Assembly (NCBI RefSeq): GCF_010671945.1
Contig: NZ_JAAHIE010000031.1
Span: 1 to 33,033, forward strand
Length of the DNA stretch: 33,033 nucleotides
From: Moorena sp. SIO4E2
Lineage (GTDB): Bacteria; Cyanobacteriota; Cyanobacteriia; Cyanobacteriales; Coleofasciculaceae
Direction of reading: 5' to 3'
Positions 10,942-28,946 of the stretch are shown here, in pieces (position 1 is the first letter of the stretch; each line of letters starts with the position of its first letter). The notes under the pieces are model-generated. The model ran no database searches, was not told the DNA's origin, and saw only the letters and a program-made list of their open reading frames with translations. Both the position numbers and the translations under genes were made by a program.

Positions 10942-11080
10942 GGGTTTCTCCTTTCTAGACATTGCAGCAGTATGGCAGTAGGGATATTCACGAACCTGAA
11001 TTCCCTTTGTGCCACAAACCTGTTCACTATTTATAGTGGATAAACCTCTCCTCAAAAAAATAAGCAGAGAGCCCACTTTT

Positions 11081-11110
11081 ATCTAGCTCGGCATGACGGT
11101 CGAGCTAGAT
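11081..11110 (-). promoter_or_regulatory. Perfect 10-bp-stem hairpin (ATCTAGCTCG-GCATGACGGT-CGAGCTAGAT) in the long 5' leader of the rplC operon
   Basis: Perfect inverted repeat. On the minus-strand transcript a U7 run (TTTTTTT, complement of 11054-11060) follows 20 nt downstream of it. It is ~140 nt upstream of the rplC start and ~470 nt downstream of the antiporter stop. Confidence 0.35.
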
Positions 11111-11582
11111 TCTCGTTCAATTGCGTTGACTGGTCAGAAAAGGCTATTCAACTTGCCTGACTTCGCTGGGACTTAAGTTGTTAATAACTCAGTATCCCTT
11201 GATCCACGAAATTGTAAGCAATTATTGACCTAAAGCAGACCCAAGAACTGATGGGACTTGTTTATACCTAACTGTCTTTGATCTACTTTAGCCCTGATGC
11301 CAAACAAACGCCTGGTATGCTGTCTATATTGTCTTGCCTCGAACCTACTTCTCAGCCCACAGCACACCCAGATCATCAGTTGCTGAGGAAGCAACTGTCA
11401 TAATGTCACTATTATATAGTATATAGTATTTTGCTAAGGGTGTCTAGTTAGTTTGAGAATTAGTTTGAGAAAAATTTGCTTGCTGTATGGATTTATGTGA
11501 AATCGGGGGATTCGGAGCTCGAAGGATGCGTTCGCGTAGCGTAGCCCTTCGGGCTAATCGCATAGTCTTGAAACCAAATTAT

Positions 11583-13784
11583 TCAGTCCTCATCCCATTC
11601 CCCAGACAACAACACACAATCCCCCACCTGCAATACTCCAGCTTCATCCACCGGATTATATAGTTTCCCTTGTCTACGCAACGCCTGAACCATCACATTG
11701 TATTGATGCTGGAGATCAATTGGCTTCATACCGACCAAACTTGAATTCTCTACCAAAGTTACCCAATGCTTAGATCCCTCACTAAGGAAACTGCGACTTT
11801 CGATCCAGTCTCTAAACGCTGCTAATTCTTCCGGTTCCCCAACAACTAGCAATCGATCCCCTGAACGCAACGTCATCTTACCTTGTGGGTAGTGGACGAT
11901 ATCATTACCTTGTTGAATTGTCAAAACTGTTACCCCAGTCACGTTACGGATATCTGCTGCTGCCAGAGTTACCCAATCTAGACGGGAAGTTTGACTCAAG
12001 GTCACCCACTCACTGTGGAGTTCTTCAGCAACATCAGTGATGTCTTGCTGCTTTGAATAGGTAGCTTGTTCAGGTCGTACACTCAAATAGCGGTCTTGGT
12101 GAATCCGATTGATCACAGACTGAATCATACCTTGGGATTCTCCCAGTGCTACTAGCACATGGGCTCCCATTTCCAATGCTGCCTCAAATTCTGGTTGCAC
12201 TACTTCCCGCGCCCCTAACTGGGTGAGTAGGTCAATTTCGCTATTTTTGTGAGAACGAGCCACAATATCCAGTCCTGGGGCAAACTTGAGGGCACGTTTG
12301 AGCAACAAGCGGGTACTGCCAGGATCGGGTAGGGCAATGGCTAGGGCTTTAGCTTTTTCTAGATGGGCTTTTTCTAACACCAGTTCCGAGTGAGCATCCC
12401 CAAACATATAAGGAATTTTTTCATGTCTTAATCGTTGAATAGCAGCTTCGCTATTTTCAATCACTAGTACCTCATGCCCTTGATTGCGCAGGATGTTGAC
12501 CAGTACTCGCCCCACTCGTCCATAGCCAGCCACTACCACATGATTACAAATCGTTTCTGGAATTGACAAAGCTTTAGTGCCCCGAAACTGACGCAGGTAG
12601 TTTTTCAGAAACGGCAGATTTACCAGGTGGTCTGCTATTCGGGGAGACCATCTCAGCGACATTGGTGTCAGGACTAGGGTAATTGCTGTGGTTCCCACCA
12701 GGAGTAGATACTGATCCCTAGTGATAAATCCTAACTCAAAGCCAACCACCGCTAATACAAAGGAAAATTCTCCAATTTGATTGAGACCAAAACTAGCAAT
12801 AAAAGCAGTTTTAAAGGAATAGCCAAATTTCAGCACAATCGGTAGGATAATGGCTGCTTTTCCACCCATTACTAACATCACTAAACCGATAATTATGCCG
12901 AAGTTATCGAGCAGCACTTCTGGCTCAATGAGCATTCCTATGGATGCAAAAAATAGACATACAAACGTGTCTTTAAGGGGAATTATTTTGGCAACTGCTT
13001 GGTCAGCATAATCAATTTCAGCCATCATTAATCCTGCCACAAATGCTCCCATTTCAACGGATAGACCAAGTCCAGCAGTAATCAAAGCAATCCCTAAACA
13101 CAGGGCAATTACTGTGATGAGAAATAACTCACTGTTTTCAGTGCGGGCAATATATTTAATGAGATGGGGAACTATCCAGCGACCGGCGGCTAGAGCAGCA
13201 GCTAGAAACACCAACGCTTTGAGTAAAGCAACAACTAAAGCTGAGCCAATATCTGAGGGCTGCTGAAGGGCGGGTATGACGGCTAACATCAGACCTAAAC
13301 TAAGGTCTTGAGCAATCAAAATTGCCAGCATCACTTGACCATGAAGGGTATTGGTTTCTCCTCTCTCCATCAGGGTTTTAAGAACTACTGAGGTAGAGGA
13401 AAGGGAGATGATGAATCCGAGCATTATTCCCGGAGTAAATCCGTCAACCCAACCAAGTCCATTGGCTAAAACTGCAACTAGGGTAATAGTGAGACTAATT
13501 TGCAGTAAACTCCCTTTCAGGACAATATCTTTAAATCGTTTAAGCTGGGATAGAGAAAATTCTACCCCATAGGTGAATAACAAAAAAACAATCCCAATTT
13601 CAGCAAGGGATTTGACTTGTTCTAATTCGCCTACGAGTTTAAGACCAAACGGACCAACCAATAAACCACTGGCTAAATAGCCTAAAAGTACAGGTTGACG
13701 TAGCCGATTGGCAAGGTAGCCTCCCAGAGCAGAAGCCCCTAGAACTGTGGTTAGATCCAGAATTAAATTGTGTCCTGAGGCCAT
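11583..13784 (-). CDS. CPA2-family monovalent cation:proton antiporter (Kef-type K+ efflux/Na+-H+ exchanger) with TrkA-N NAD-binding and C-terminal TrkA-C domains
   Basis: 733 aa. About 12 predicted TM helices in the N-terminal 400 aa. A Rossmann motif (VVVAGYGRVGRVLVNILRNQGHEVLVIE) follows the membrane domain. The C-terminal region is TrkA-C-like. Confidence 0.85.
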   Translation of the reverse strand: MASGHNLILDLTTVLGASALGGYLANRLRQPVLLGYLASGLLVGPFGLKLVGELEQVKSLAEIGIVFLLFTYGVEFSLSQLKRFKDIVLKGSLLQISLTITLVAVLANGLGWVDGFTPGIMLGFIISLSSTSVVLKTLMERGETNTLHGQVMLAILIAQDLSLGLMLAVIPALQQPSDIGSALVVALLKALVFLAAALAAGRWIVPHLIKYIARTENSELFLITVIALCLGIALITAGLGLSVEMGAFVAGLMMAEIDYADQAVAKIIPLKDTFVCLFFASIGMLIEPEVLLDNFGIIIGLVMLVMGGKAAIILPIVLKFGYSFKTAFIASFGLNQIGEFSFVLAVVGFELGFITRDQYLLLVGTTAITLVLTPMSLRWSPRIADHLVNLPFLKNYLRQFRGTKALSIPETICNHVVVAGYGRVGRVLVNILRNQGHEVLVIENSEAAIQRLRHEKIPYMFGDAHSELVLEKAHLEKAKALAIALPDPGSTRLLLKRALKFAPGLDIVARSHKNSEIDLLTQLGAREVVQPEFEAALEMGAHVLVALGESQGMIQSVINRIHQDRYLSVRPEQATYSKQQDITDVAEELHSEWVTLSQTSRLDWVTLAAADIRNVTGVTVLTIQQGNDIVHYPQGKMTLRSGDRLLVVGEPEELAAFRDWIESRSFLSEGSKHWVTLVENSSLVGMKPIDLQHQYNVMVQALRRQGKLYNPVDEAGVLQVGDCVLLSGEWDED

Positions 13785-13980
13785 GATTAGGAATGGGTAA
13801 TCGGTAATTGGTCACAGGCTTCATACCTGGGGGTTTGCCCTTGTGCCCTGATTTTTTTGTAACCTACCCACTTGAACTAAGCAACTTGGGCATCAAGGAG
13901 TTGGTAAGGAAGGCTCAAAGTACTCTACCCACCTGATAATTTTTTCAGTTATCTTATGACGGTAGAGATTTCCAAGAACT

Positions 13981-14202
13981 ATGGCTTTAGAACAGTGTAA
14001 CGTTTGTGGGTCTTTAACCAGCACCAACGATGAAATTTGCCTCAGTTGTGGTTATCCAGCTAAAGGTCGGCCAAAGTTAGTTTTTTTCAAGTGGACTGCT
14101 ATCGGTGTTGCTGTAGTATTTGCTCTGTTTCTCGTACTAGGGGTCATTAACAGAGTTGAGCAACACCTCAACTCTCAACCTTCGACACATATAGACCGGT
14201 AA
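13981..14202 (+). CDS. Small zinc-ribbon membrane protein (CxxC...CxxC followed by one TM helix)
   Basis: 73 aa. CNVCGS...CLSCG zinc ribbon followed by a hydrophobic helix IGVAVVFALFLVLGVI. Confidence 0.55.
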   Translation: MALEQCNVCGSLTSTNDEICLSCGYPAKGRPKLVFFKWTAIGVAVVFALFLVLGVINRVEQHLNSQPSTHIDR

Positions 14203-14289
14203 GATAGACCGGTAAGATAGCGTTGGGTTATCAGTCTATCTGTGTCTGCTGCGCGCTGTGTCTGCTGCGCGCAGCAGATACACATGTAC

Positions 14290-14535
14290 TTAGTTAGAAG
14301 TTGGCGGACTAATCAGACCATTAGCTGCACCAAATAGATTGATGGGATTTTTGCCATCGGTAATCAAAACACTCTGGATACCAAGTGCTTCTAGAAGTCT
14401 TGCCTGCATTTCCGGACCTGCTTGTGCGATCGCTTGAATGGTTTGAGGACCAATTGCTTCTACTTTCTGTCGGTATTCTTCACTCTTAATGTGAGCCTCG
14501 CAGTCAAGTCCCGAAAAATTAGGACAAAACTGTAT
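14290..14535 (-). pseudogene. 3' fragment of a major vault protein (MVP) homolog: cap-helix end plus cap-ring. No start codon; separated from its 5' part by the tnpB element.
   Basis: Minus-strand translation reads ...[69 protein letters not shown]. Metazoan MVP has ...[50 protein letters not shown].... The frame is closed by a stop at 14536-14538. Confidence 0.8.
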
Positions 14536-14555
14536 TTAATAGTGCGAACTGGACA

Positions 14556-14584
14556 TTGACAATTTTATAGCGCTAGACTATAAT
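14556..14584 (+). promoter_or_regulatory. Consensus sigma-70-type promoter (TTGACA-17 nt-TATAAT) upstream of tnpB
   Basis: TTGACA at 14556-14561, a 17-nt spacer, TATAAT at 14579-14584. It lies about 30 nt upstream of the tnpB start. Confidence 0.6.
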
Positions 14585-14614
14585 GGCAGTATATAGCAAA
14601 AGCTGTACACACCG

Positions 14615-16102
14615 TTGATGATGCAAAAGAAAGTAGGCGCAGTAAAGAAGATATCGACTCAGGTCGTCCCAGTTGTAGGGATAGCTAAGTCGGTTGAGCT
14701 TGAGCTGTTGTCTACGATGAAAAAACTAGGCGTCGTCAGGTCTGAGTCTTACAACAAGCTGGGTAGTATAAGTCATTGGGGACTTGACTGGAAAAAAGCC
14801 TACCCAGAAGTCAGGGACTTCAGGAAGCCTGAGTCCCTGGGCTTGCCTTCCAAGTTAATGGAATGGACTGTCAGTGATGTAGCTAAAACTATCACAGCTC
14901 AACAAGCGGCTTCCATTGAGGCAGTCATAAAAAAGATCTATAAGAGGTTTCCTGGAAAGGAAAACCAGAAGATCAGAAAGGATATCTCTAAGCAACTCAA
15001 AACTTCAGCTTTTCTGGATAATCCACTATTGCACAGACTTGTAAGGAAAGAGTTTCAGAGAGGACATTCTTGGGTCAAGAATCAAGTTGTATACCAACAA
15101 GGAGGATACTCGTGTAAACGATTGTCTCGTTATACTTATCAATTGGAATTAGCTGGAATCAGAAGAGGAAAAAGAAACAAACTAATAGTTAGGTCTAATC
15201 GAAATATTAAAGGACAGATTAGACTAATATACAACTCTCTACTGGCAAGATTTGAGATTCATTTTTTGGTTAATCACGGGACAGCTGAGATTCCTCCTGA
15301 ACGTCGAGCGATAGGAGTAGACAAGGGATACACCGAGGCTTTTTATGATTCAGATGGTCAGGCACACGGGAAGAACCTGGGCAAAATAGCAACCATAAAA
15401 TCCGTTCGCGTAGCGTGGCCTTTTGGCCATCGAATATGCGCCAAAAATCGGAACAGAGGAAAACTCTGGGCAATACATAGGAAGCTAGAAAAAATAGATC
15501 CAGCTAAATCAGCTCGGATACTGAAAAATAATCTGAGTCGAAAAACAGAAAACAGTCGTTACAGAAGAGATCAATCAGAGTTGAGGGCGATTATAGGGGC
15601 TGCTTCTAAATCCCTCTTCAAAGGAGAATCTCTAAGAATTTTTGCTGAGGATTTAACGCAACCAATCAAAAATAAACGCCAGTCAAAGGCTATGTCTCGC
15701 AAGTTGAATAGCTGGATGAAAGGAGAAATGCGGTACTCCTTGCAGAAATGGGCTAATTGGACTGGTTCGGTTGTGACAGAAGTCCAGCCAAGCTACACGT
15801 CGCAAATTGACTCCTTTTCTGGCACCTTATTGGGAGCAAGGATTGGGGACAGTTTTATCAGATTTAATGGGGTCGTGTTGCAGGCTGATCACAATGCTGC
15901 GAAGAATATCCTTGCTCGTGGTACAGATCAAGGAATCTCCCGGTTTATGACTAGGGTTGAAGTGCAGGCAGTATTGTTGCGTCGTACTGCGCGTTTCTTA
16001 GAAGGTATGGATTTGACTTTAGCTGACGCGGTTAAGCTAGGATGGCTTGACCGCAAGCATGCCAAAACTCAAGCTTTTAAGGAACTCCTCACCGGGATGT
16101 GA
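14615..16102 (+). CDS. tnpB: IS200/IS605-family TnpB-like RuvC nuclease (OrfB). Divergent variant lacking the zinc-finger cysteines. First ATG at 14618.
   Basis: RuvC-I is GVDKGYTEAFYDSDG, RuvC-II is LRIFAEDL...SVVTEVQPSYTSQID, RuvC-III is LQADHNAAKNI. The four expected ZnF Cys positions read SFSG...RFNG instead. The N-terminal 230 aa have a WED/REC-like layout. Confidence 0.8.
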   Translation: MMMQKKVGAVKKISTQVVPVVGIAKSVELELLSTMKKLGVVRSESYNKLGSISHWGLDWKKAYPEVRDFRKPESLGLPSKLMEWTVSDVAKTITAQQAASIEAVIKKIYKRFPGKENQKIRKDISKQLKTSAFLDNPLLHRLVRKEFQRGHSWVKNQVVYQQGGYSCKRLSRYTYQLELAGIRRGKRNKLIVRSNRNIKGQIRLIYNSLLARFEIHFLVNHGTAEIPPERRAIGVDKGYTEAFYDSDGQAHGKNLGKIATIKSVRVAWPFGHRICAKNRNRGKLWAIHRKLEKIDPAKSARILKNNLSRKTENSRYRRDQSELRAIIGAASKSLFKGESLRIFAEDLTQPIKNKRQSKAMSRKLNSWMKGEMRYSLQKWANWTGSVVTEVQPSYTSQIDSFSGTLLGARIGDSFIRFNGVVLQADHNAAKNILARGTDQGISRFMTRVEVQAVLLRRTARFLEGMDLTLADAVKLGWLDRKHAKTQAFKELLTGM

Positions 16103-16223
16103 GGAACGTCTAGATAGATGAGCGGGAGGCTTGACTCCAATTGCTACTTGACCGCTCCTCACTCAGACATCAATAAAATGCACCTTGGCCGTTTTATTCG
16201 GTTTTATCCCGATTGATGACGGT

Positions 16224-16697
16224 TTAAGAGTATTCCTTAGCTCTTGCTTCTGCTGTTGCCTGACCTGTAGACTCAATGGCTATATTTTCTGCCTTTGACA
16301 CTCCCCGTCCTAGAAGAACGGGGAGTGTCAAATCCCCTACCAGTTTCTCGTTTGGATAAAGGGGAAACGGATCTTGCGCGAAACGAATTTCCAGATCACC
16401 GTAGCGCAGTCGAATTTGACCATGCTGATCAGCAATGGGTTGACCGTCTTCATCCCGGAGTAATGGATTAGCCACCACACAATAATATCGAGGCGGCACA
16501 ATAATCATCGGTTCAGGTTTTAAGATCAGCCGCTCGTGATCCCGAAGGGTAATGGTTTGAGGACCAACCTCCAGTCGCGTAACACCAGTATTGTTGTCTA
16601 GCACATGAATAAACTGTTGGGGCTTGATGCGAATCACTTCACTAGTTGTTCTAGGCACTTCCATTTTCTTCTCTGTTTTACGCTCAGTTGTAGTCAT
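16224..16697 (-). CDS. Major vault protein homolog, 5' portion: MVP repeats 1-2 plus a short shoulder/cap-helix-like tail. The gene is truncated/disrupted by the tnpB element.
   Basis: 157 aa. [29 protein letters not shown]...[14 protein letters not shown]...[37 protein letters not shown] compares with metazoan MVP [29 protein letters not shown]...VTVPPRHYCTVANP...[37 protein letters not shown]. The tail [17 protein letters not shown] resembles MVP AVESTGTAKAEAESRAE. Confidence 0.8.
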   Translation of the reverse strand: [157 protein letters not shown]

Positions 16698-17348
16698 AGT
16701 CTCGGTCTAATCGAACTAGATTACTAAGTTGCCTTCATCGGTCGTAAGTAGTCATACACAATGAAAGTTGACTGATCAGATAAGGGAATAGGGAACGGCG
16801 AACCGAGAACATAAAGGGGTTGAACAACGTTAAGGGTTTCAACACAGTTAACAGCATTTATGTTCAGGTATTTAGATACAGTATTGTGCCTATATAAATC
16901 CCAAGTCAGTTGTGAGCAAAATTGTTTTACCAAGGGAGCTTCGGATCAGGAAATATCAGGATTCATGTAGGATTGCTATAGTTCATGGTTTATCCCTAAA
17001 GCCTAATCAACAATCAACTATTTTGTAACCTGACAGCAAAGGAACTCGCTATAAAACTAAAGTAACCTTTCTTTTTCTGTTCTGCCAAAATAACCCAAAC
17101 TCGTTATGACTACGTTGAGTTTATGGAGTTGGGAGCAATTTCATCAAACCCCTGGGATAGGAGATGTGATTGCTGATCGGAACATTAACGATGAGGTATG
17201 AGGCCACCTTATATTAGGCTTGATAGCATTAAGTACTAACAACTATTAACCATTAATCATTAACCCAACCTCTAAAAATACTAATATTTTTTTTTAGGAT
17301 ATAATCAGGATGATTACTATCTAATATTAAACAAATAAGGGGCATACT

Positions 17349-18218
17349 ATGAATCGTGATGACTTCCTAAAACGCTACGAAGCCGGTGAAAGAGATTTTT
17401 CTGGTATTAATTTGAAAAAGGCTAACTTAAAAAGTACTAATTTCAAGGGTGTTTGTCTAAAAAATGCGGACTTGAGTAATGCTGATTTAGAGGAAGCTAC
17501 TTGGGATGATGTAGATCTAAGTCATGCTAACTTGAGGAATGCTTACCTATACGAAACCACTATCGAAAATTCTAACCTTACTAAGGCTAACTTGAGTCAT
17601 ATAGTAGCCTCTGAATCAACCTTGGAAAACTGTGATTTTAGTGGTACTGATCTGAGTTATGCGGATTTATCTGTAATCTATATAGCTACTAGTAAGCTCA
17701 GGGATGCCAATTTTAGTTATGCTACCTTATGTGAGGTTTACGTAGGTGATTCTGACCTGAGCAATGCTAACCTCAGTTATGCCCGTATGCTAGGGGTTGA
17801 TGGCTGGAAAAAAGCTGACCTGAGTAGTATAAATTTTACCAAAGCTATCTATACGTCATACACTGAGTTTCCGACTGGATTTAACCCATCAAAAGCCGGA
17901 GCAATCTTTATTTGTGCCGAGGCTGACTTAAGCGGTTTAGACTTGAAAAATGTCAACCTAGGTTATGAAGAACTGTGTGGCGCTAACCTTAGTCATGCTA
18001 ATTTGAGTGGTGCAAGACTGTATAATACTGACTTGAGAGCCGCCAACCTAAGTTATGCCAATTTAGAAGGTGTTGACTTTCATGATGCTGATTTGAGTGA
18101 GGCTAATTTCAGCCATGCTAATCTTAAAAAGGCTAAATTAGCTAAGGCTGACTTAAATGATGCTATTTTCTGTAACACTATTATGCCTAATGGCAGGATT
18201 AAAAATAATAATTGTTAG
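17349..18218 (+). CDS. Pentapeptide-repeat protein
   Basis: 289 aa, dominated by A(N/D)L(S/K)xA(N/D)L pentapeptide repeats (ANLKSTNFKGVCLKNADLSNADLEEA...). AAGGGG SD-like sequence upstream. Confidence 0.85.
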   Translation: MNRDDFLKRYEAGERDFSGINLKKANLKSTNFKGVCLKNADLSNADLEEATWDDVDLSHANLRNAYLYETTIENSNLTKANLSHIVASESTLENCDFSGTDLSYADLSVIYIATSKLRDANFSYATLCEVYVGDSDLSNANLSYARMLGVDGWKKADLSSINFTKAIYTSYTEFPTGFNPSKAGAIFICAEADLSGLDLKNVNLGYEELCGANLSHANLSGARLYNTDLRAANLSYANLEGVDFHDADLSEANFSHANLKKAKLAKADLNDAIFCNTIMPNGRIKNNNC

Positions 18219-18561: not shown

Positions 18562-21462
18562 TCAATTGCGCAGAATCAACCGTTGCCGATGAACATGCAA
18601 CAAACGAAACTCCCGCTGCGCCACCTGCTCCAACATATAAATAATGTGCTCTGGTCGCAACATCGTGCCATCATTCAAACAACTCCCCACATACCGCAAA
18701 ACCACCCCAGACTCCGCAACCTCCTCTTCACCATCTTTGGATTTTTGGGGTTCGATCACCTCGAAGTCAAATAAGCGATCGCATAAATTCACCCACTGCT
18801 TCTTCCCCGACTTCGTAAACCGCTCCCACCAAATTTCCTTACTACCTTTGATTGCTTCAATCCAACCCTGCCACTCTTCCCAAGACGCTTCTGATATTAC
18901 CTCAACTCGAATCAAATACTCAGCTCTCTCCAACAGCTGAGTTCCCGCAGGTTCCTTCAAATCCACTGCTTCAACCCCATACACCGGAATCTCTTCAGGC
19001 AACTGAGACACCAGCCTTTCCCTAAACTCCTCAACTGGCATTTTCTCAGTTAACTCAAACTCCACAATCTCCCCACTGCTAGACGCTCCCAAGGGCAACG
19101 CATTAGCAATCATAATCCGAGCATTAGCCCGAAACCCCCCACTATATCGAATTGGCAGTGACGCCCGTCTTACTGCTCTCTCAAACAGACTTGCCAAATC
19201 CAGATGACCCAACAAGGTCATATCCCCCAACTTTCCAAACCAAACCCGCAGCCGCTGATCCTTATTAGTATTGGGTTTAAAGTGACCAGCAAATTGCGGA
19301 ATCTGTGGCGGGTCAATCACCACATTATGACCAAAATCAATCCCACACACACCACAGTGAGAACACCCATCAAAGGAACAATCCGGTACCGTTGCTGCAT
19401 CTAACGCCCGTTGTAAATCTTCCTTGAGCCAATTCTTATCAATTCCCGTATCAATATGATCCCAAGGCAAGGGAGCATCAAGGGCGTTAAGGGTTGACGG
19501 TTGAAGGTTAGCTGGTTGAAGGTTAGCTGGTTGAAGGTTAGAAGGTTGAAGGTTAGAAGGTTGAAGGTTAGAAGGTTGAAGGTTAGAAGGTTGAAGGTTA
19601 GTTGGTTGAAGGTTAGTTGGTTGAAGGTTAGCTGGTTGAAGGTTAGTTGGTTGTCGGTTAGTTGGTTGTCGGTTAGTTGGTTGTAGGTTAGCTGGTTGTA
19701 GGTTAGCTGGTTGCTCTGAACTTTCAACCTTGGCCTTTTGGCCACGCTTCGCGAACAACCTTCCAACTTGCAACTCTTCTACACCCGCCATCACGTTCCA
19801 TTCGCCATTTTCTACTTGGCGATATTTCCAGGTCAGACCTGATGAAGCGATCGCATTTTCCCAAGCAGCAAATGCCCGATCCAAGCTTTCCATCCAGGAG
19901 TCCATCCCTGCCCCCAATTCCCAAGCACGGCGCACCACCGCACTTAAGCGTCTGTCACCCCGTCCCACGAAATCTTCCATGGCCGAAATCCGAACATCGG
20001 TGTAATTAACCTTCACCCCCCTGATCTGACCAAATACTTGTTTGAGTAATTCCTGCTTGCGTTCAAACTCCGAAGTCGATACGGAATGCCACTGGAATGG
20101 GGTGTGAGGTTTTGGGGTAAAATTAGAAACAGTTATGTTAAACTTAATGGTTTTTCTGCCTTTAGCACGGCACTCCTGCTGCAACCAACGCACCGTTTCC
20201 GCAATCCCCAACACATCCATATCCGTTTCACCGGGCAAACCAATCATAAAATAGAGCTTGACTTTCTCCCAGCCTTGCTCAAATGCCGTCTTTACTCCCC
20301 TGAGCAGTTCTTCATTAGTCAGTCCCTTATTAACAATATCCCGCATCCGCTGAGTTCCTGCTTCTGGGGCAAAGGTCAAGCCACTCTGCCGATTGCCCCC
20401 TAGGATATTGGCAATATTCTCATCAAAGCGGTCTACCCGCTGACTCGGTAGGGACAAGGAAATATTCTGATCCTTAAGACGATTTTTGATTTCCATCCCC
20501 ACCGCTGGTAGAGCCAGGTAATCCGAACAACTCAGGGATAGAAGGGAAAACTCGTTATACCCTGTAGCACGCATCCCTTGTTCAATAGCTTCCACCACTT
20601 TTTCTGGTTCCACATCCCGCGCTGGTCGAGTCAGCATCCCAGGTTGGCAGAAGCGACAACCCCGAGTACAGCCCCGTCGCACTTCGATCTTGAGTCGGTC
20701 ATGAACCGTTTGGATATAGGGTACTAGTCCAATAGCATAGGCAGGCATCGGTGTAGCCACACGCCGCAAAATCCGCTTCGGCACATCAGGGCGGTTGGGT
20801 TTAACTGAGCCATCCTCAGTCATATCATAGAATTGGGGGACATACACCCCTGGTATCTGAGCCAAATCCAGGAGTAACGCTTCTCGACTTAAGCCAGCTG
20901 CTTTGCCTTCTTCGATTACTAAGCCAATCTCTGGCAACAATTCTTCCCCATCGCCAAGATCAACAAAATCTAAGAAATCAGCATAGGGTTCAGGATTCGA
21001 TGTCGCCGTTTGTCCACCTGCAAAAATTAGGGGTATTTCCGATATATCAAACTGAGCACGGTCTTTCCAGGTCAGGGGAATTCCTCCCAAATCCAACATT
21101 TCCAAGATGTTGGTTGCCCCTAATTCATAGCTAAGGCTAAAGCCAATAATATCAAAATCTTTCAGAGGTCGCCGATTCTCGACAGCAAACAGAGGGGTTT
21201 GAGTGGAACGTAATTTAGCTGCCAAGTCTGGGGCAGGTAGATAGGCGCGATCGCATAATTGCCTAGGTTGATAATTCAATATATTGTAGAGGATGATATG
21301 GCCTAAGTTAGAAGCCCCCACTTCATAGATTTCTGGATAAGTCAATACCCAGCGTACCTCAGCTTCTTCCCAAGGTTTATGGACTGCTCCCAACTCGTTA
21401 CCTAAGTAACGGGCTGGTCTGTTGATGTCTGGTGTTAATATTTCCTCTACAGTGATTGCCAT
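18562..21462 (-). CDS. B12-binding-type radical SAM protein (TIGR03960-like) fused to a DUF2344/TIGR03936-like C-terminal domain, with a 15-copy pentapeptide linker
   Basis: 966 aa. The N-terminus MAITVEEILTPDINRPARYLGNELGAVHKPWEEAEVRWVLTYPEIYEVGASNLGHIILYN is typical of this radical-SAM family, and CTRGCRFC is the SAM cluster motif. The C-terminal 270 aa (RLRVWFGKLGDMTLLGHLDL...) are the usually separate DUF2344 partner. Confidence 0.8.
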   Translation of the reverse strand: MAITVEEILTPDINRPARYLGNELGAVHKPWEEAEVRWVLTYPEIYEVGASNLGHIILYNILNYQPRQLCDRAYLPAPDLAAKLRSTQTPLFAVENRRPLKDFDIIGFSLSYELGATNILEMLDLGGIPLTWKDRAQFDISEIPLIFAGGQTATSNPEPYADFLDFVDLGDGEELLPEIGLVIEEGKAAGLSREALLLDLAQIPGVYVPQFYDMTEDGSVKPNRPDVPKRILRRVATPMPAYAIGLVPYIQTVHDRLKIEVRRGCTRGCRFCQPGMLTRPARDVEPEKVVEAIEQGMRATGYNEFSLLSLSCSDYLALPAVGMEIKNRLKDQNISLSLPSQRVDRFDENIANILGGNRQSGLTFAPEAGTQRMRDIVNKGLTNEELLRGVKTAFEQGWEKVKLYFMIGLPGETDMDVLGIAETVRWLQQECRAKGRKTIKFNITVSNFTPKPHTPFQWHSVSTSEFERKQELLKQVFGQIRGVKVNYTDVRISAMEDFVGRGDRRLSAVVRRAWELGAGMDSWMESLDRAFAAWENAIASSGLTWKYRQVENGEWNVMAGVEELQVGRLFAKRGQKAKVESSEQPANLQPANLQPTNRQPTNRQPTNLQPANLQPTNLQPTNLQPSNLQPSNLQPSNLQPSNLQPANLQPANLQPSTLNALDAPLPWDHIDTGIDKNWLKEDLQRALDAATVPDCSFDGCSHCGVCGIDFGHNVVIDPPQIPQFAGHFKPNTNKDQRLRVWFGKLGDMTLLGHLDLASLFERAVRRASLPIRYSGGFRANARIMIANALPLGASSSGEIVEFELTEKMPVEEFRERLVSQLPEEIPVYGVEAVDLKEPAGTQLLERAEYLIRVEVISEASWEEWQGWIEAIKGSKEIWWERFTKSGKKQWVNLCDRLFDFEVIEPQKSKDGEEEVAESGVVLRYVGSCLNDGTMLRPEHIIYMLEQVAQREFRLLHVHRQRLILRN
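19493..19712. repeat. 15-bp tandem repeat array, about 14.7 copies (GGTTGAAGGTTAGCT and variants), in-frame inside the radical-SAM gene
   Basis: Visible direct repeats. The coding frame reads QPANL QPANL QPTNR QPTNR QPTNL QPANL QPTNL QPTNL QPSNL x4 QPANL x2 QPSTL. The other two frames give the artifactual repeat ORFs 19401-19766 and 19501-19686. Confidence 0.9.
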
Positions 21463-27329: not shown

Positions 27330-28676
27330 CTAGTTTTTTGACACTCCCCGGTCGCGCATACGCGGGGATTCTTCATTCAACGAGCCAGCTTGCTGAACCT
27401 GGCCGGAACCAAGAACAGTAGAGGCCGATTCTCCTGAAGCGTTTAGATCTTTTAAGATCCAGGTTCCGGTGTGCCCCACCGTACCCAAGGCTTTCTTAAG
27501 GATGTTTATTGCGGCGTTGTGGTCTCTATCTAACTGACAACCACACTTGCACGTATGAGTCCTAGTTGATAGGGACTTTTTAACTTCTTCGCCACAATTG
27601 GAACAGTTTTGGCTGGTATATGCAGGATTTACTGCAACTGTTACCTTTCCGAACTTGGTGCCAAAGTGCTCCATCCATTTCCTAAACTGATACCAACCTG
27701 CATCATTAATAGACTTAGCGAGGCAGTGATTTTTTACTAGGTTCTTGGCTCTTAAGTCGACCTAGGCGACCAGATCGTTAGAACAGATTACGCAGCGCGC
27801 CGGAGACGAAACCTTAGAATAAAGAAGCCTTAATAACAAAGATTTAACCCTTTTATGCATAGCCGACTAACCATAAAGGCTTCTTTATTCTAACGGTAAC
27901 TTCGTTCCCAGTCTCTTGGCGTTCTCTTCACGTTGCCTACTTATCTTAAGGTGCTGTCTGCCTAGTCTATTAACTGCTTTATTTCGATTGGATGAGCCTT
28001 TCTTCTTGCGAGAAACTCGACGCTGGTAGAACTTAAGGCGTTTTTCTACCGTTCTGTAAAAGCAGGGATTTGGTTCAGTTTTTCCAGCGGAATCAGTGTA
28101 AAAATATTTTAGTCCAACATCCAAGCCGATAGCTGTCCCACTTGGCTCTAGTTCCTCTTTGATATCAACTGAAACACAAAACTGGACATAATAACCATCA
28201 GCCCGGCGAACTATACGGACTCGCTTTATTTCCTTTTTATCCAAGCGCCACAAGTCCCATGTACCTTTAAGCTTAAGCTTCCCAATACCCTTTTTATCAC
28301 TAAAGGTGATTGACTTCTTGTCAGGGGATAACTTCCATCCAGACTGTTTATACTCCACTGAGCGGCAGTTTTTCTGGAACTTAGGAAAACCTTTCTTTCC
28401 AGGTACTTTTTTCTTGCAGTTATCAAAGAATCGAACAATTGATGACCATGCTCTTTCAGCACTAGACTGACGAGCAGTAGAGTTTAATTCATTAGCAAAA
28501 GGAAAGTTTTTAGCAAGGACTGCACTGTACTTATTAAGGTCAAATTTGTTGACCCCTTTATTTTCCATCCAATACCTGAGGCAGCTATTACGGATGAACT
28601 GGACTGTCCGGATAGCCTCGTTGATCCCAGAGTATTGATGTTTTTTTCCTTTCGCCTTGAACTCTAAAATGATCAT
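27330..28676 (-). pseudogene. tnpB: Degraded classical IS200/IS605-family tnpB (OrfB). N-terminal and C-terminal parts are separated by a palindromic insertion, an in-frame TAG and a frameshift; the RuvC-II region is partly missing.
   Basis: The N-part (real start MIILEFKAKGKKHQYSGINEAIRTVQFIRNSCLRYW...AIGLDVGLKYFYTDSAG...RRVSRKKKGSSNRNKAVNRLGRQH) is the typical TnpB WED/REC/RuvC-I region. The C-part reads VDLRAKNLVKNHCLAKSINDAGWYQFRKWMEHFGTKFGKVTVAVNPAYTSQNCSNCG...CKCGCQLDRDHNAAINI (ZnF plus RuvC-III) and can only be read across one stop and one frameshift. Confidence 0.75.
27803..27912. mobile_element. PATE-like palindromic element (copy A) inserted inside the degraded tnpB
   Basis: Long imperfect palindrome: CCTTAGAATAAAGAAGCC-TTAATAACAAAGATTTAACCCTTTTATGCATAGCCGACTAACCATAAA-GGCTTCTTTATTCTAACGG. 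It interrupts the TnpB reading frame. Confidence 0.55.
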
Positions 28677-28689
28677 CAGCTTCTTAAAG

Positions 28690-28790
28690 TTACCGTAAGA
28701 ATAGGGTCGCCTTATAACAACAGTTTTAACCCTTTTTCCATAGCCGACAAACCATAAAGGCGACCCTATTCTAAGGTTTCGTCTGGGACC
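28690..28790. mobile_element. PATE-like palindromic element (copy B), or the IS left-end hairpin, immediately upstream of the degraded tnpB start
   Basis: Same loop sequence as copy A (TTATAACAACAGTTTTAACCCTTTTTCCATAGCCGACAAACCATAAA). It differs in the stem, which is fully compensated: GGGTCGCC/GGCGACCC here versus AAGAAGCC/GGCTTCTT in copy A. Confidence 0.55.
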
Positions 28791-28946
28791 TAAACTGTTC
28801 ACTCCCTTATTTTACAACATCCAGACTAAAATTCCGGATTTTCCTGAAATATTTTTCTAGGCGCGTCAAGCCGCTGTGAGCCTTCATCCCCGGTCATTAG
28901 ACACGGGGTTTTCGGCTTTGGGGGATTTTTATAAAAGGACAGAGAT

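Follow-up and report, generated by a model that had tools for sequence, protein, structure and literature searches.

The window, a 33,033-nt stretch of contig NZ_JAAHIE010000031.1 from the cyanobacterium Moorena sp. SIO4E2, holds at 14290 to 16697 several pieces of a gene for major vault protein (MVP). All of them lie on the minus strand, and a TnpB insertion element on the plus strand is lodged among them. The features of this locus are listed below, with three comparison loci abbreviated throughout: L001 is the locus of Moorena sp. SIO3I8, which served as the reference for breakpoints, L002 is that of Moorena bouillonii PNG, and L027 is that of Limnofasciculus.

14290..14497, minus strand: MVP codons 812-879 and the stop codon, covering the last part of the cap helix plus the cap ring (blastn, tblastn, solved structures)
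14498..16234, plus strand: TnpB-only insertion element, complete, 1737 bp (each end +/-2-3 nt), absent from L001, with ends conserved with three copies
14621..16102, plus strand: tnpB open reading frame (ORF), 493 aa (NCBIfam guided_TnpB, Pfam TNB domain)
16103..about 16236, plus strand: conserved 3' untranslated right end of the element, which supplies the stop codon of a 157-aa ORF
16235..16292, minus strand: MVP cap-helix island of 58 bp, codons about 735-753, 19 residues (blastn 96.6% to L001; tblastn aa 734-753)
16293..16331, no strand: perfect 39-bp palindrome, TTTGACACTCCCCGT-CCTAGAAGA-ACGGGGAGTGTCAAA, at the junction of a 1836-bp deletion, read as 13 codons
16332..16697, minus strand: MVP codons 1-122, repeats 1 and 2 (R1-R2), the intact 5' part (blastn 95.9% to L001; Vault_2; solved MVP structures)
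16768..16914, no strand: 147-bp insertion lying 70 bp ahead of the MVP start, seen as a gap in blastn against L001 and L002

Fragments of a full-length MVP gene

The 157-aa ORF (16224..16697, minus strand) begins with an ATG and carries the Pfam Vault_2 repeat domain at residues 64-122 (E=1e-26). Its residues 17-125 align to positions 3-112 of rat, mouse and human MVP in solved structures (E=7e-37 to 1e-33), and 56 of the 103 residues aligned with mammalian MVP are identical. On the other side of the element, frame 1 of 14290..14535 (minus strand) has no start codon; its residues 14-76 align to MVP 788-850, also in solved structures (E=1e-17 to 6e-16), with 34 identities in 63 positions. The original prediction, made from the letters of the window, had named both segments as MVP with roughly half of the residues identical, and both statements were borne out (E of about 1e-36 and 1e-17, ~54% identity to mammalian MVP); the profile search that it proposed as a check found Vault_2 in the N-terminal fragment. 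It was also right about the segment 16224-16697 and about the orientation, but the MVP-derived part of the 3' segment ends at 14497, and 14498..14535 belongs to the inserted element. The jump from repeat 2 into cap-helix sequence that it had noticed within the N-terminal ORF was confirmed. That stretch gives a weak, sub-threshold match to rat MVP 711-729, and its 58 bp of DNA agree at 97% with codons 735-753 in the intact orthologue from Moorena. A "hypothetical protein" recorded for Moorena sp. SIO1G6 shares 99% identity with the 157-aa sequence. Moorena, a filamentous cyanobacterium of the sea, went earlier by the names Moorea and Lyngbya majuscula.

An uninterrupted orthologue, the existence of which had been proposed for checking in related cyanobacteria, was found in Moorena sp. 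SIO3I8. The gene order at L001 is that of the window, with a pentapeptide-repeat gene, an intact MVP gene of 879 aa and a gene for a 733-aa antiporter. The SIO3I8 protein contains Vault (four times), Vault_2, Vault_3, Vault_4 and MVP_shoulder (E=7e-54) in Pfam, and its residues 17-873 are colinear with positions 3-849 of animal MVP (E of about 1e-297 to 1e-299). The coding parts retained in the window are 98-99% identical to it. A tblastn search with this protein placed exactly three pieces in the 33-kb window, aa 1-124, 734-753 and 812-879 (the last at 98.5%), and no further piece, ruling out that the missing 1.8 kb was relocated within the window. By blastn the two fragments are colinear with the intact Moorena gene, in agreement with the earlier claim that they come from one gene and keep its order and orientation.

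Much of the protein is missing from the window copy. Neither a Pfam match to MVP_shoulder (PF11978) in the fragments nor a tblastn match to aa 125-733 in the window was obtained, and the full stack of nine repeats (Pfam Vault, Vault_3, Vault_4) is absent from the window, where the repeat region amounts to aa 1-124. Cap helix and cap ring are not joined to the repeats in one polypeptide: the ORF carries only aa 734-753, and residues 812-879 lie beyond the insertion sequence (IS) on a separate piece that has no start codon. No NCBIfam model matches the intact MVP of 879 aa, and none matches the 157-aa fragment.

The map of the window onto L001, drawn from blastn, resolves the breakpoints to single bases.

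Window 16767..16332, L001 9931..10366, 95.9% identical: MVP codons 1-122
Window 16331..16293, no L001 counterpart: 39 bp in place of the 1836 bp at L001 10367..12202 (codons 123-734)
Window 16292..16235, L001 12203..12260, 96.6% identical: MVP codons about 735-753
Window 16234..14498, no L001 counterpart: 1737 bp of foreign DNA in place of the 172 bp at L001 12261..12432
Window 14497..11016, L001 12433..15913, 96.2% identical: MVP codons 812-879 and all downstream sequence

At the level of the aligned DNA, this comparison shows two lesions in one Moorena lineage, a loss of 1836 bp and an insertion of a TnpB element accompanied by a loss of about 172 bp. Lost with the 1836 bp were repeats 3-9, the shoulder and the beginning of the cap helix. 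The net change at this lesion is -1797 bp, or 599 codons, and the frame is kept, with reading continuing through 13 filler codons into 19 residues of the cap helix. The ORF stops three codons past the cap-helix island, at a stop codon supplied by the end of the TnpB element (EYS and stop). The 157-aa ORF thus runs from R1-R2 through 13 residues encoded by the hairpin and 19-20 of the cap helix to three residues and a stop from the IS end. A plus-strand ORF of 493-495 aa with Pfam and NCBIfam matches of the TnpB type does lie between the fragments, as the original prediction had it. The further claim that the gene was split by this insertion is half of the story, because the element sits inside the gene but about 172 bp of coding sequence were also lost there. 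In total, the window copy lacks codons 123-734 and about 754-811 of the intact gene, and what is left of the gene is the 157-aa ORF and a 3' fragment (codons 812-879) that cannot be translated as part of MVP. The arrangement recurs, equally degraded, in two other assemblies, GCA_010672795.1 and GCA_010692525.1, whose copy of the element is 99.9% identical. The 147-bp upstream insertion is present in the loci L033-L035, and no other copy of it was found among the retrieved sequences.

Full-length MVP is the rule among the bacteria that have the gene. One genome scan, with the N-terminal fragment as query, gave 32 bacterial MVP loci, mostly from filamentous cyanobacteria and in addition from Anaerolineales, Chloroflexaceae and Candidatus Parabeggiatoa. 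Since complete ORFs of 852-897 aa are present in 25 of the 32, full length can be taken as the norm; one further locus is open for 813 codons up to the end of its contig. The window gene therefore descends from a normal full-length MVP. Taken together, we consider it highly probable (about 90%) that a cyanobacterial MVP gene of ordinary, full length (~879 aa) once stood here in Moorena and that its remains form a pseudogene.

The half-shell of a vault owes its cohesion to the shoulder and the bundle of cap helices. Seven of the nine repeats, the shoulder and all but about 20 helix residues are gone from the window copy, so no vault shell would be possible, and going by the published vault structure a vault-like particle made from this locus would be out of the question. 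The MVP homologue is genuine, but its biology is ordinary: the genus was already known to have this gene, and the copy in the window has recently eroded.

Mobile elements at the two lesions

The palindrome that fills the 1836-bp deletion consists of two exact 15-bp arms around a 9-nt loop, folds with an energy of -27.1 kcal/mol and has no counterpart at the same position in L001 or L002. An origin of the arms from flanking MVP sequence by fold-back repair was considered and rejected, because no matching sequence exists at either breakpoint of the intact gene and because the same palindrome also occurs elsewhere. When metagenome contigs were scanned with an exact pattern, the hairpin unit turned up at five unrelated loci with differing flanks, in the form TTGACACTCCCCG, a loop of 10-11 nt, then CGGGGAGTGTCAA; the cyanobacterial HIP1 octamer is abundant in four of these five contigs. 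The half-site TCCCCG-loop-CGGGGAGTGTCAA is also the extreme 3' terminus of classical IS605-type TnpB elements, and the hairpin followed by GTGTCAA ends such elements at window 27338, L002 11681 and L027 8229. The L002 terminus sits inside the MVP gene of M. bouillonii PNG, at a position other than those of the window lesions. The recurrence of the stand-alone unit and its match to TnpB termini identify the filler as a copy of a hairpin mini-element descended from an IS end. From its scattered occurrence, this mini-element may itself be mobile; the lone empty-site comparison for the hairpin (L001 against the window) is confounded by the 1836-bp deletion.

The second lesion is occupied by the TnpB element, which lies antisense to the MVP gene, in the cap-helix region. 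Its ORF matches Pfam Cas12f1-like_TNB (E=2e-6) and NCBIfam guided_TnpB (E=9e-19, 68 bits, below the curated cut-off of 100 bits), and weakly matches the C-terminal region of solved chains of the Cas12f/TnpB type. The RuvC motifs GVDKG, AEDL and ADHNAAKN are kept. Across six paralogues both aspartates of the triad are invariant and the glutamate is present in five (P0052 has serine), while zinc-finger cysteines (CxxC...CxxC) are absent at the aligned positions of the window TnpB and five paralogues. There are more than 100 clusters of paralogues with 69-84% identity, nearly all from Moorena and several per complete genome. This Moorena-expanded TnpB family (window 14621-16102, P0052-P0070) combines the RuvC D-E-D triad with a lack of zinc-finger cysteines.

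The limits of the element were set by comparing the window copy with three paralogous loci, a small sample of four copies in which the left ends of L044-L048, too divergent or truncated, were left out. Conservation begins at TCGCAGTCAAGTCCC and ends at CGGTTTAAGAGTATYCC, and because these limits are shared with the three paralogous copies, the window element is complete at both ends. Its left end holds a perfect TTGACA-17-TATAAT promoter (14556-14584, score 12/12), and the 3' region of about 130 bp is the best-conserved non-coding part. No TnpA gene is found in the 1737 bp, where the only other ORFs are short antisense ones of 40-67 aa, and mobility of the element would require a transposase acting in trans. 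Among the retrieved sequences, the only other copies of the 1737-bp element are at the same locus in L033-L035. An Rfam search of the whole window at gathering thresholds returned no family, either for the TnpB 3' region or for the hairpin.

The left flanks of all four element copies end in (A/C)GCC. In the window the left flank ends in GAGCC, and the bases that precede the right-flank junction in the intact gene are CAGCC. This pattern places the element between a pair of AGCC motifs whose spacing in the intact gene is about 174 bp. No target duplication was seen at the window element junctions.

We take the window element to be a TnpB-only member of the IS200/IS605 family (IS1341-type), and the 39-bp palindrome to be a PATE- or REP-like hairpin derivative. 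The element resembles the former in its single TnpB ORF with a RuvC triad, in its many-copy family, in its asymmetric conserved ends without terminal inverted repeats, and in its short conserved flank motif. The guide RNA scaffold of TnpB elements normally lies in the 3' non-coding region, and a conserved 3' non-coding region is present here as well. The palindrome in turn equals the end hairpin of a second, classical type of TnpB element, and like PATE and REP mini-elements it is a stand-alone unit, found at unrelated loci and related to an IS end. The window element differs from IS200/IS605 TnpB-only elements in that its TnpB scores below the NCBIfam cut-off and in the lack of zinc-ribbon cysteines, of TnpA and of an Rfam match. 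It differs too in that its insertion coincides with a loss of about 172 bp, whereas a precise IS605-type insertion makes none.

A dispersed repeat (core CGTTCGCGTAGCGTGGCC) was also observed in the tnpB ORF. It occurs at window 15400-15426, within tnpB, at window 11526-11552 and at L001 7216-7319. In tnpB it forms an in-frame insert of eight codons (VRVAWPFG) that is shared by P0052 and P0057 and absent from other paralogues. Elsewhere the repeat is intergenic, and it forms a threefold tandem array in the sister genome.

Members of two abundant mobile-element families account for the breakage of the MVP gene, and both deletions may have been by-products of mobile-element activity. At the TnpB site, two insertions at AGCC motifs could have been followed by recombination between the copies, or one insertion could have been followed by a microhomology-mediated deletion. 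The same two routes would apply to the hairpin and the 1836-bp deletion, and both fit the junctions. The intact ORF, the RuvC D-E-D triad, the consensus promoter and the conserved ends suggest that the TnpB gene is active, and the mobile elements are likely, judging by these features, to be the only parts of the locus that still are.

Timing, selection and alternative explanations

Several points weigh against a simple pseudogene. Codons 1-122 differ from L001 by 10 synonymous changes and one non-synonymous change and give no sign of neutral decay, and seven of the seven changes found only in the window copy are synonymous, although these were not polarised. The 1836-bp deletion is exactly in frame, an outcome with a one-in-three chance in the absence of selection. 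The excess of synonymous changes implies that the MVP gene was under purifying selection for most of the time since the lineages split; for comparison, the neighbouring antiporter gene has a synonymous divergence (pS) of 0.067 and a non-synonymous divergence (pN) of 0.006 against L001. Such an excess would fit a very recent inactivation, and would fit continued selection on the 157-aa ORF equally well.

One alternative is that the 157-aa ORF is a surviving expressed mini-protein, composed of the R1-R2 waist domains and a short helical tail and serving a function other than that of a vault. The ATG start, the ORF being intact in three assemblies, the synonymous changes and the frame kept by the deletion speak for it, as do short N-terminal MVP ORFs on long contigs elsewhere in cyanobacteria (P0009, P0019, P0047). 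However, with three almost identical assemblies, agreement among them carries no information on selection after the deletion, and the synonymous excess is expected just as much if inactivation was recent relative to the divergence of about 4% of nucleotides (pS about 0.1) from L001. The C-terminal 35 residues are accidental, consisting of a read-through of the hairpin, a helix stub of 19-20 residues and an IS-derived stop. In the upstream region, where the 147-bp insertion lies 70 bp before the start codon, a promoter search gave no consensus match, and the other short N-terminal ORFs examined were plain deletion remnants. We consider a surviving mini-protein improbable. In its furthest form this reading has the R1-R2 fragment, made by a hairpin-mediated in-frame deletion, kept as a stand-alone protein in this Moorena lineage; a related proposal is that solo hairpins of 37-39 bp, derived from right ends of the IS605 type, are mobile in their own right and remodel genes in frame. 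We hold these to be just as doubtful.

We weigh recent inactivation heavily over ongoing constraint on the N-terminal ORF. The tail of the ORF is accidental sequence and the region upstream of it is disrupted, and MVP remnants exist at two other cyanobacterial loci, L031 and L032, besides the interrupted M. bouillonii copy next to an assembly gap.

The original prediction had suggested that the gene before the insertion was a mini-MVP of about 250-350 aa, with R1-R2 fused to the cap helix and cap ring. As an ancestral state this is refuted, since the syntenic SIO3I8 orthologue is intact at 879 aa. If the 1836-bp deletion preceded the TnpB insertion, a transient in-frame derivative of 280 aa could have been made. 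That such a product was a functional protein is very unlikely: not only the closest syntenic orthologue but also 25 of the 32 loci are full length, the fusion point is a mobile palindrome and not a protein linker, and the product would lack the shoulder and about 85 cap-helix residues. An allele with the deletion only was not seen, and all three carriers of the deletion also have the TnpB insertion.

An assembly artefact, in which a chimeric join or a collapsed repeat lies behind the apparent deletions, is hardly credible: Moorena genomes are repeat-rich and an assembly gap does lie inside the MVP gene at the M. bouillonii locus, but the same junctions occur in the two other independently assembled genomes, which makes misassembly unlikely, and both junctions are clean at base level with the element ends intact.

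Neighbouring features and bacterial MVP genes

The MVP remnant is flanked by the two genes that anchor the synteny with L001.

17349..18218, plus strand: pentapeptide-repeat protein gene, the upstream syntenic anchor, common to intact MVP loci (Pfam Pentapeptide, E=2e-58)
11583..13784, minus strand: gene for a 733-aa cation/proton antiporter with TrkA domains, the downstream syntenic anchor (Na_H_Exchanger, TrkA_N and TrkA_C listed for the identical gene)

Directly after the MVP stop codon, window 14233-14290 forms an imperfect inverted repeat with 24-nt arms that are 83% complementary. Part of it is inverted with respect to L001 (window 14269..14238 aligns to L001 12676..12645), and it may be a former terminator.

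A second TnpB element, of the classical type, occupies window 27330-28810 on the minus strand, and its gene is broken. It comprises two ORFs, one for OrfB_IS605 (27885..28802, 305 aa) and one for a TNB zinc finger (27330..27674, 114 aa), parted by an insert of about 200 bp with inverted repeats (27814-27834 and 27873-27893). The hairpin at its 3' terminus (27338-27375), TCCCCG..CGGGGAGTGTCAA, matches the palindrome in the MVP remnant. Further away, a 966-aa ORF (18562..21462, minus strand) contains a tandem repeat with a 15-bp unit in about 13 or more copies (19444-19728). The syntenic gene in L033 and L034 encodes a radical-SAM/DUF2344 protein of 971 or 966 aa, so the number of repeat copies seems to vary between strains.

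The original prediction had called MVP essentially absent from bacteria, a view that is outdated. Homologues from cyanobacteria, myxobacteria and Bacteroidetes have been published (PMC3762200; bioRxiv 10.1101/872010), and the 32 loci of the genome scan point the same way. Daly et al. 2013 (PMC3762200) described an 879-aa MVP of Lyngbya majuscula (F4Y3B4) and homologues in Oscillatoria and Microcoleus, and suggested a transfer from eukaryotes. Sokolskyi 2019 (bioRxiv 10.1101/872010) analysed F4Y3B4 under the name Moorea producens and argued for the opposite direction, and a 2023 preprint (10.1101/2023.11.10.566534) regards the direction of MVP transfer as not settled. Oscillatoria acuminata K9TKX8 and Microcoleus sp. 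PCC 7113 K9WB38 are among the cyanobacterial homologues described (PMC3762200; 10.1101/872010). A transfer from a eukaryote to a bacterium, as the original prediction proposed for this gene, is therefore one published option and not a new one, and its direction is disputed (PMC3762200, 10.1101/872010, 10.1101/2023.11.10.566534). The papers cited here show no bacterial vault particle.

The window gene shares genus and gene with the MVP of Lyngbya majuscula 3L / Moorea producens (F4Y3B4), whose length of 879 aa is also that of the SIO3I8 orthologue, but the window copy is a TnpB-interrupted remnant without codons 123-734 and about 754-811. Set beside eukaryotic MVP (rat and human; PDB 4V60, 4HL8, 7PKZ and others), the window fragments share about 54% of their residues with the mammalian protein in R1-R2 and the cap ring; the intact orthologue from Moorena can be aligned colinearly with animal MVP along its full length and carries an equal set of Pfam domains. 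The differences are that the Moorena host is a bacterium and that the window copy is without the parts needed for assembly.

Three loci outside cyanobacteria also have a complete MVP ORF (852-871 aa) whose N-terminus shares 62-71% identity with the Moorena protein; they were observed in an Anaerolineales metagenome-assembled genome (MAG; L026), in Candidatus Parabeggiatoa sp. HSG14 (L028) and in a Chloroflexaceae MAG (L029). Within +/-7 kb of 25 intact bacterial MVP genes (L001-L028), no gene family recurs beyond close relatives. Bacterial MVP behaves as a stand-alone gene, and its genomic context gives no hint of function.

Other damaged copies were observed in cyanobacteria. In Floridaenema evergladense (L031, 10001-11400) aa 1-71 of MVP are fused to aa 373-764, and in an uncultured cyanobacterium (L032, 10001-10731) five short pieces lie inside 730 bp. 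In M. bouillonii PNG (L002 11419-12121) the MVP gene is interrupted too, leaving ORFs of 485 aa and 213 aa; the interrupting stretch includes an assembly gap as well as, in antisense orientation, a right-end part of a classical TnpB element, and it sits at a position unlike those of the window lesions. The independent internal-deletion remnants in L031 and L032 make the loss of MVP appear recurrent in cyanobacteria.

Bacterial MVP genes bear on the origin of vaults, to which the window, as a recently broken copy of a known gene, adds little. Of more interest is whether vaults are formed by the intact MVPs of cyanobacteria, a question on which the window is of no help. Database entries of the 157-aa "hypothetical protein" are better read as pseudogene fragments. 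The locus is a base-resolved case of mobile-element-associated gene erosion in which the intact and the decayed allele are both at hand. With three independent wrecks (the window, L031 and L032) and the interrupted M. bouillonii copy, MVP is dispensable in Moorena and has been lost repeatedly in cyanobacteria.

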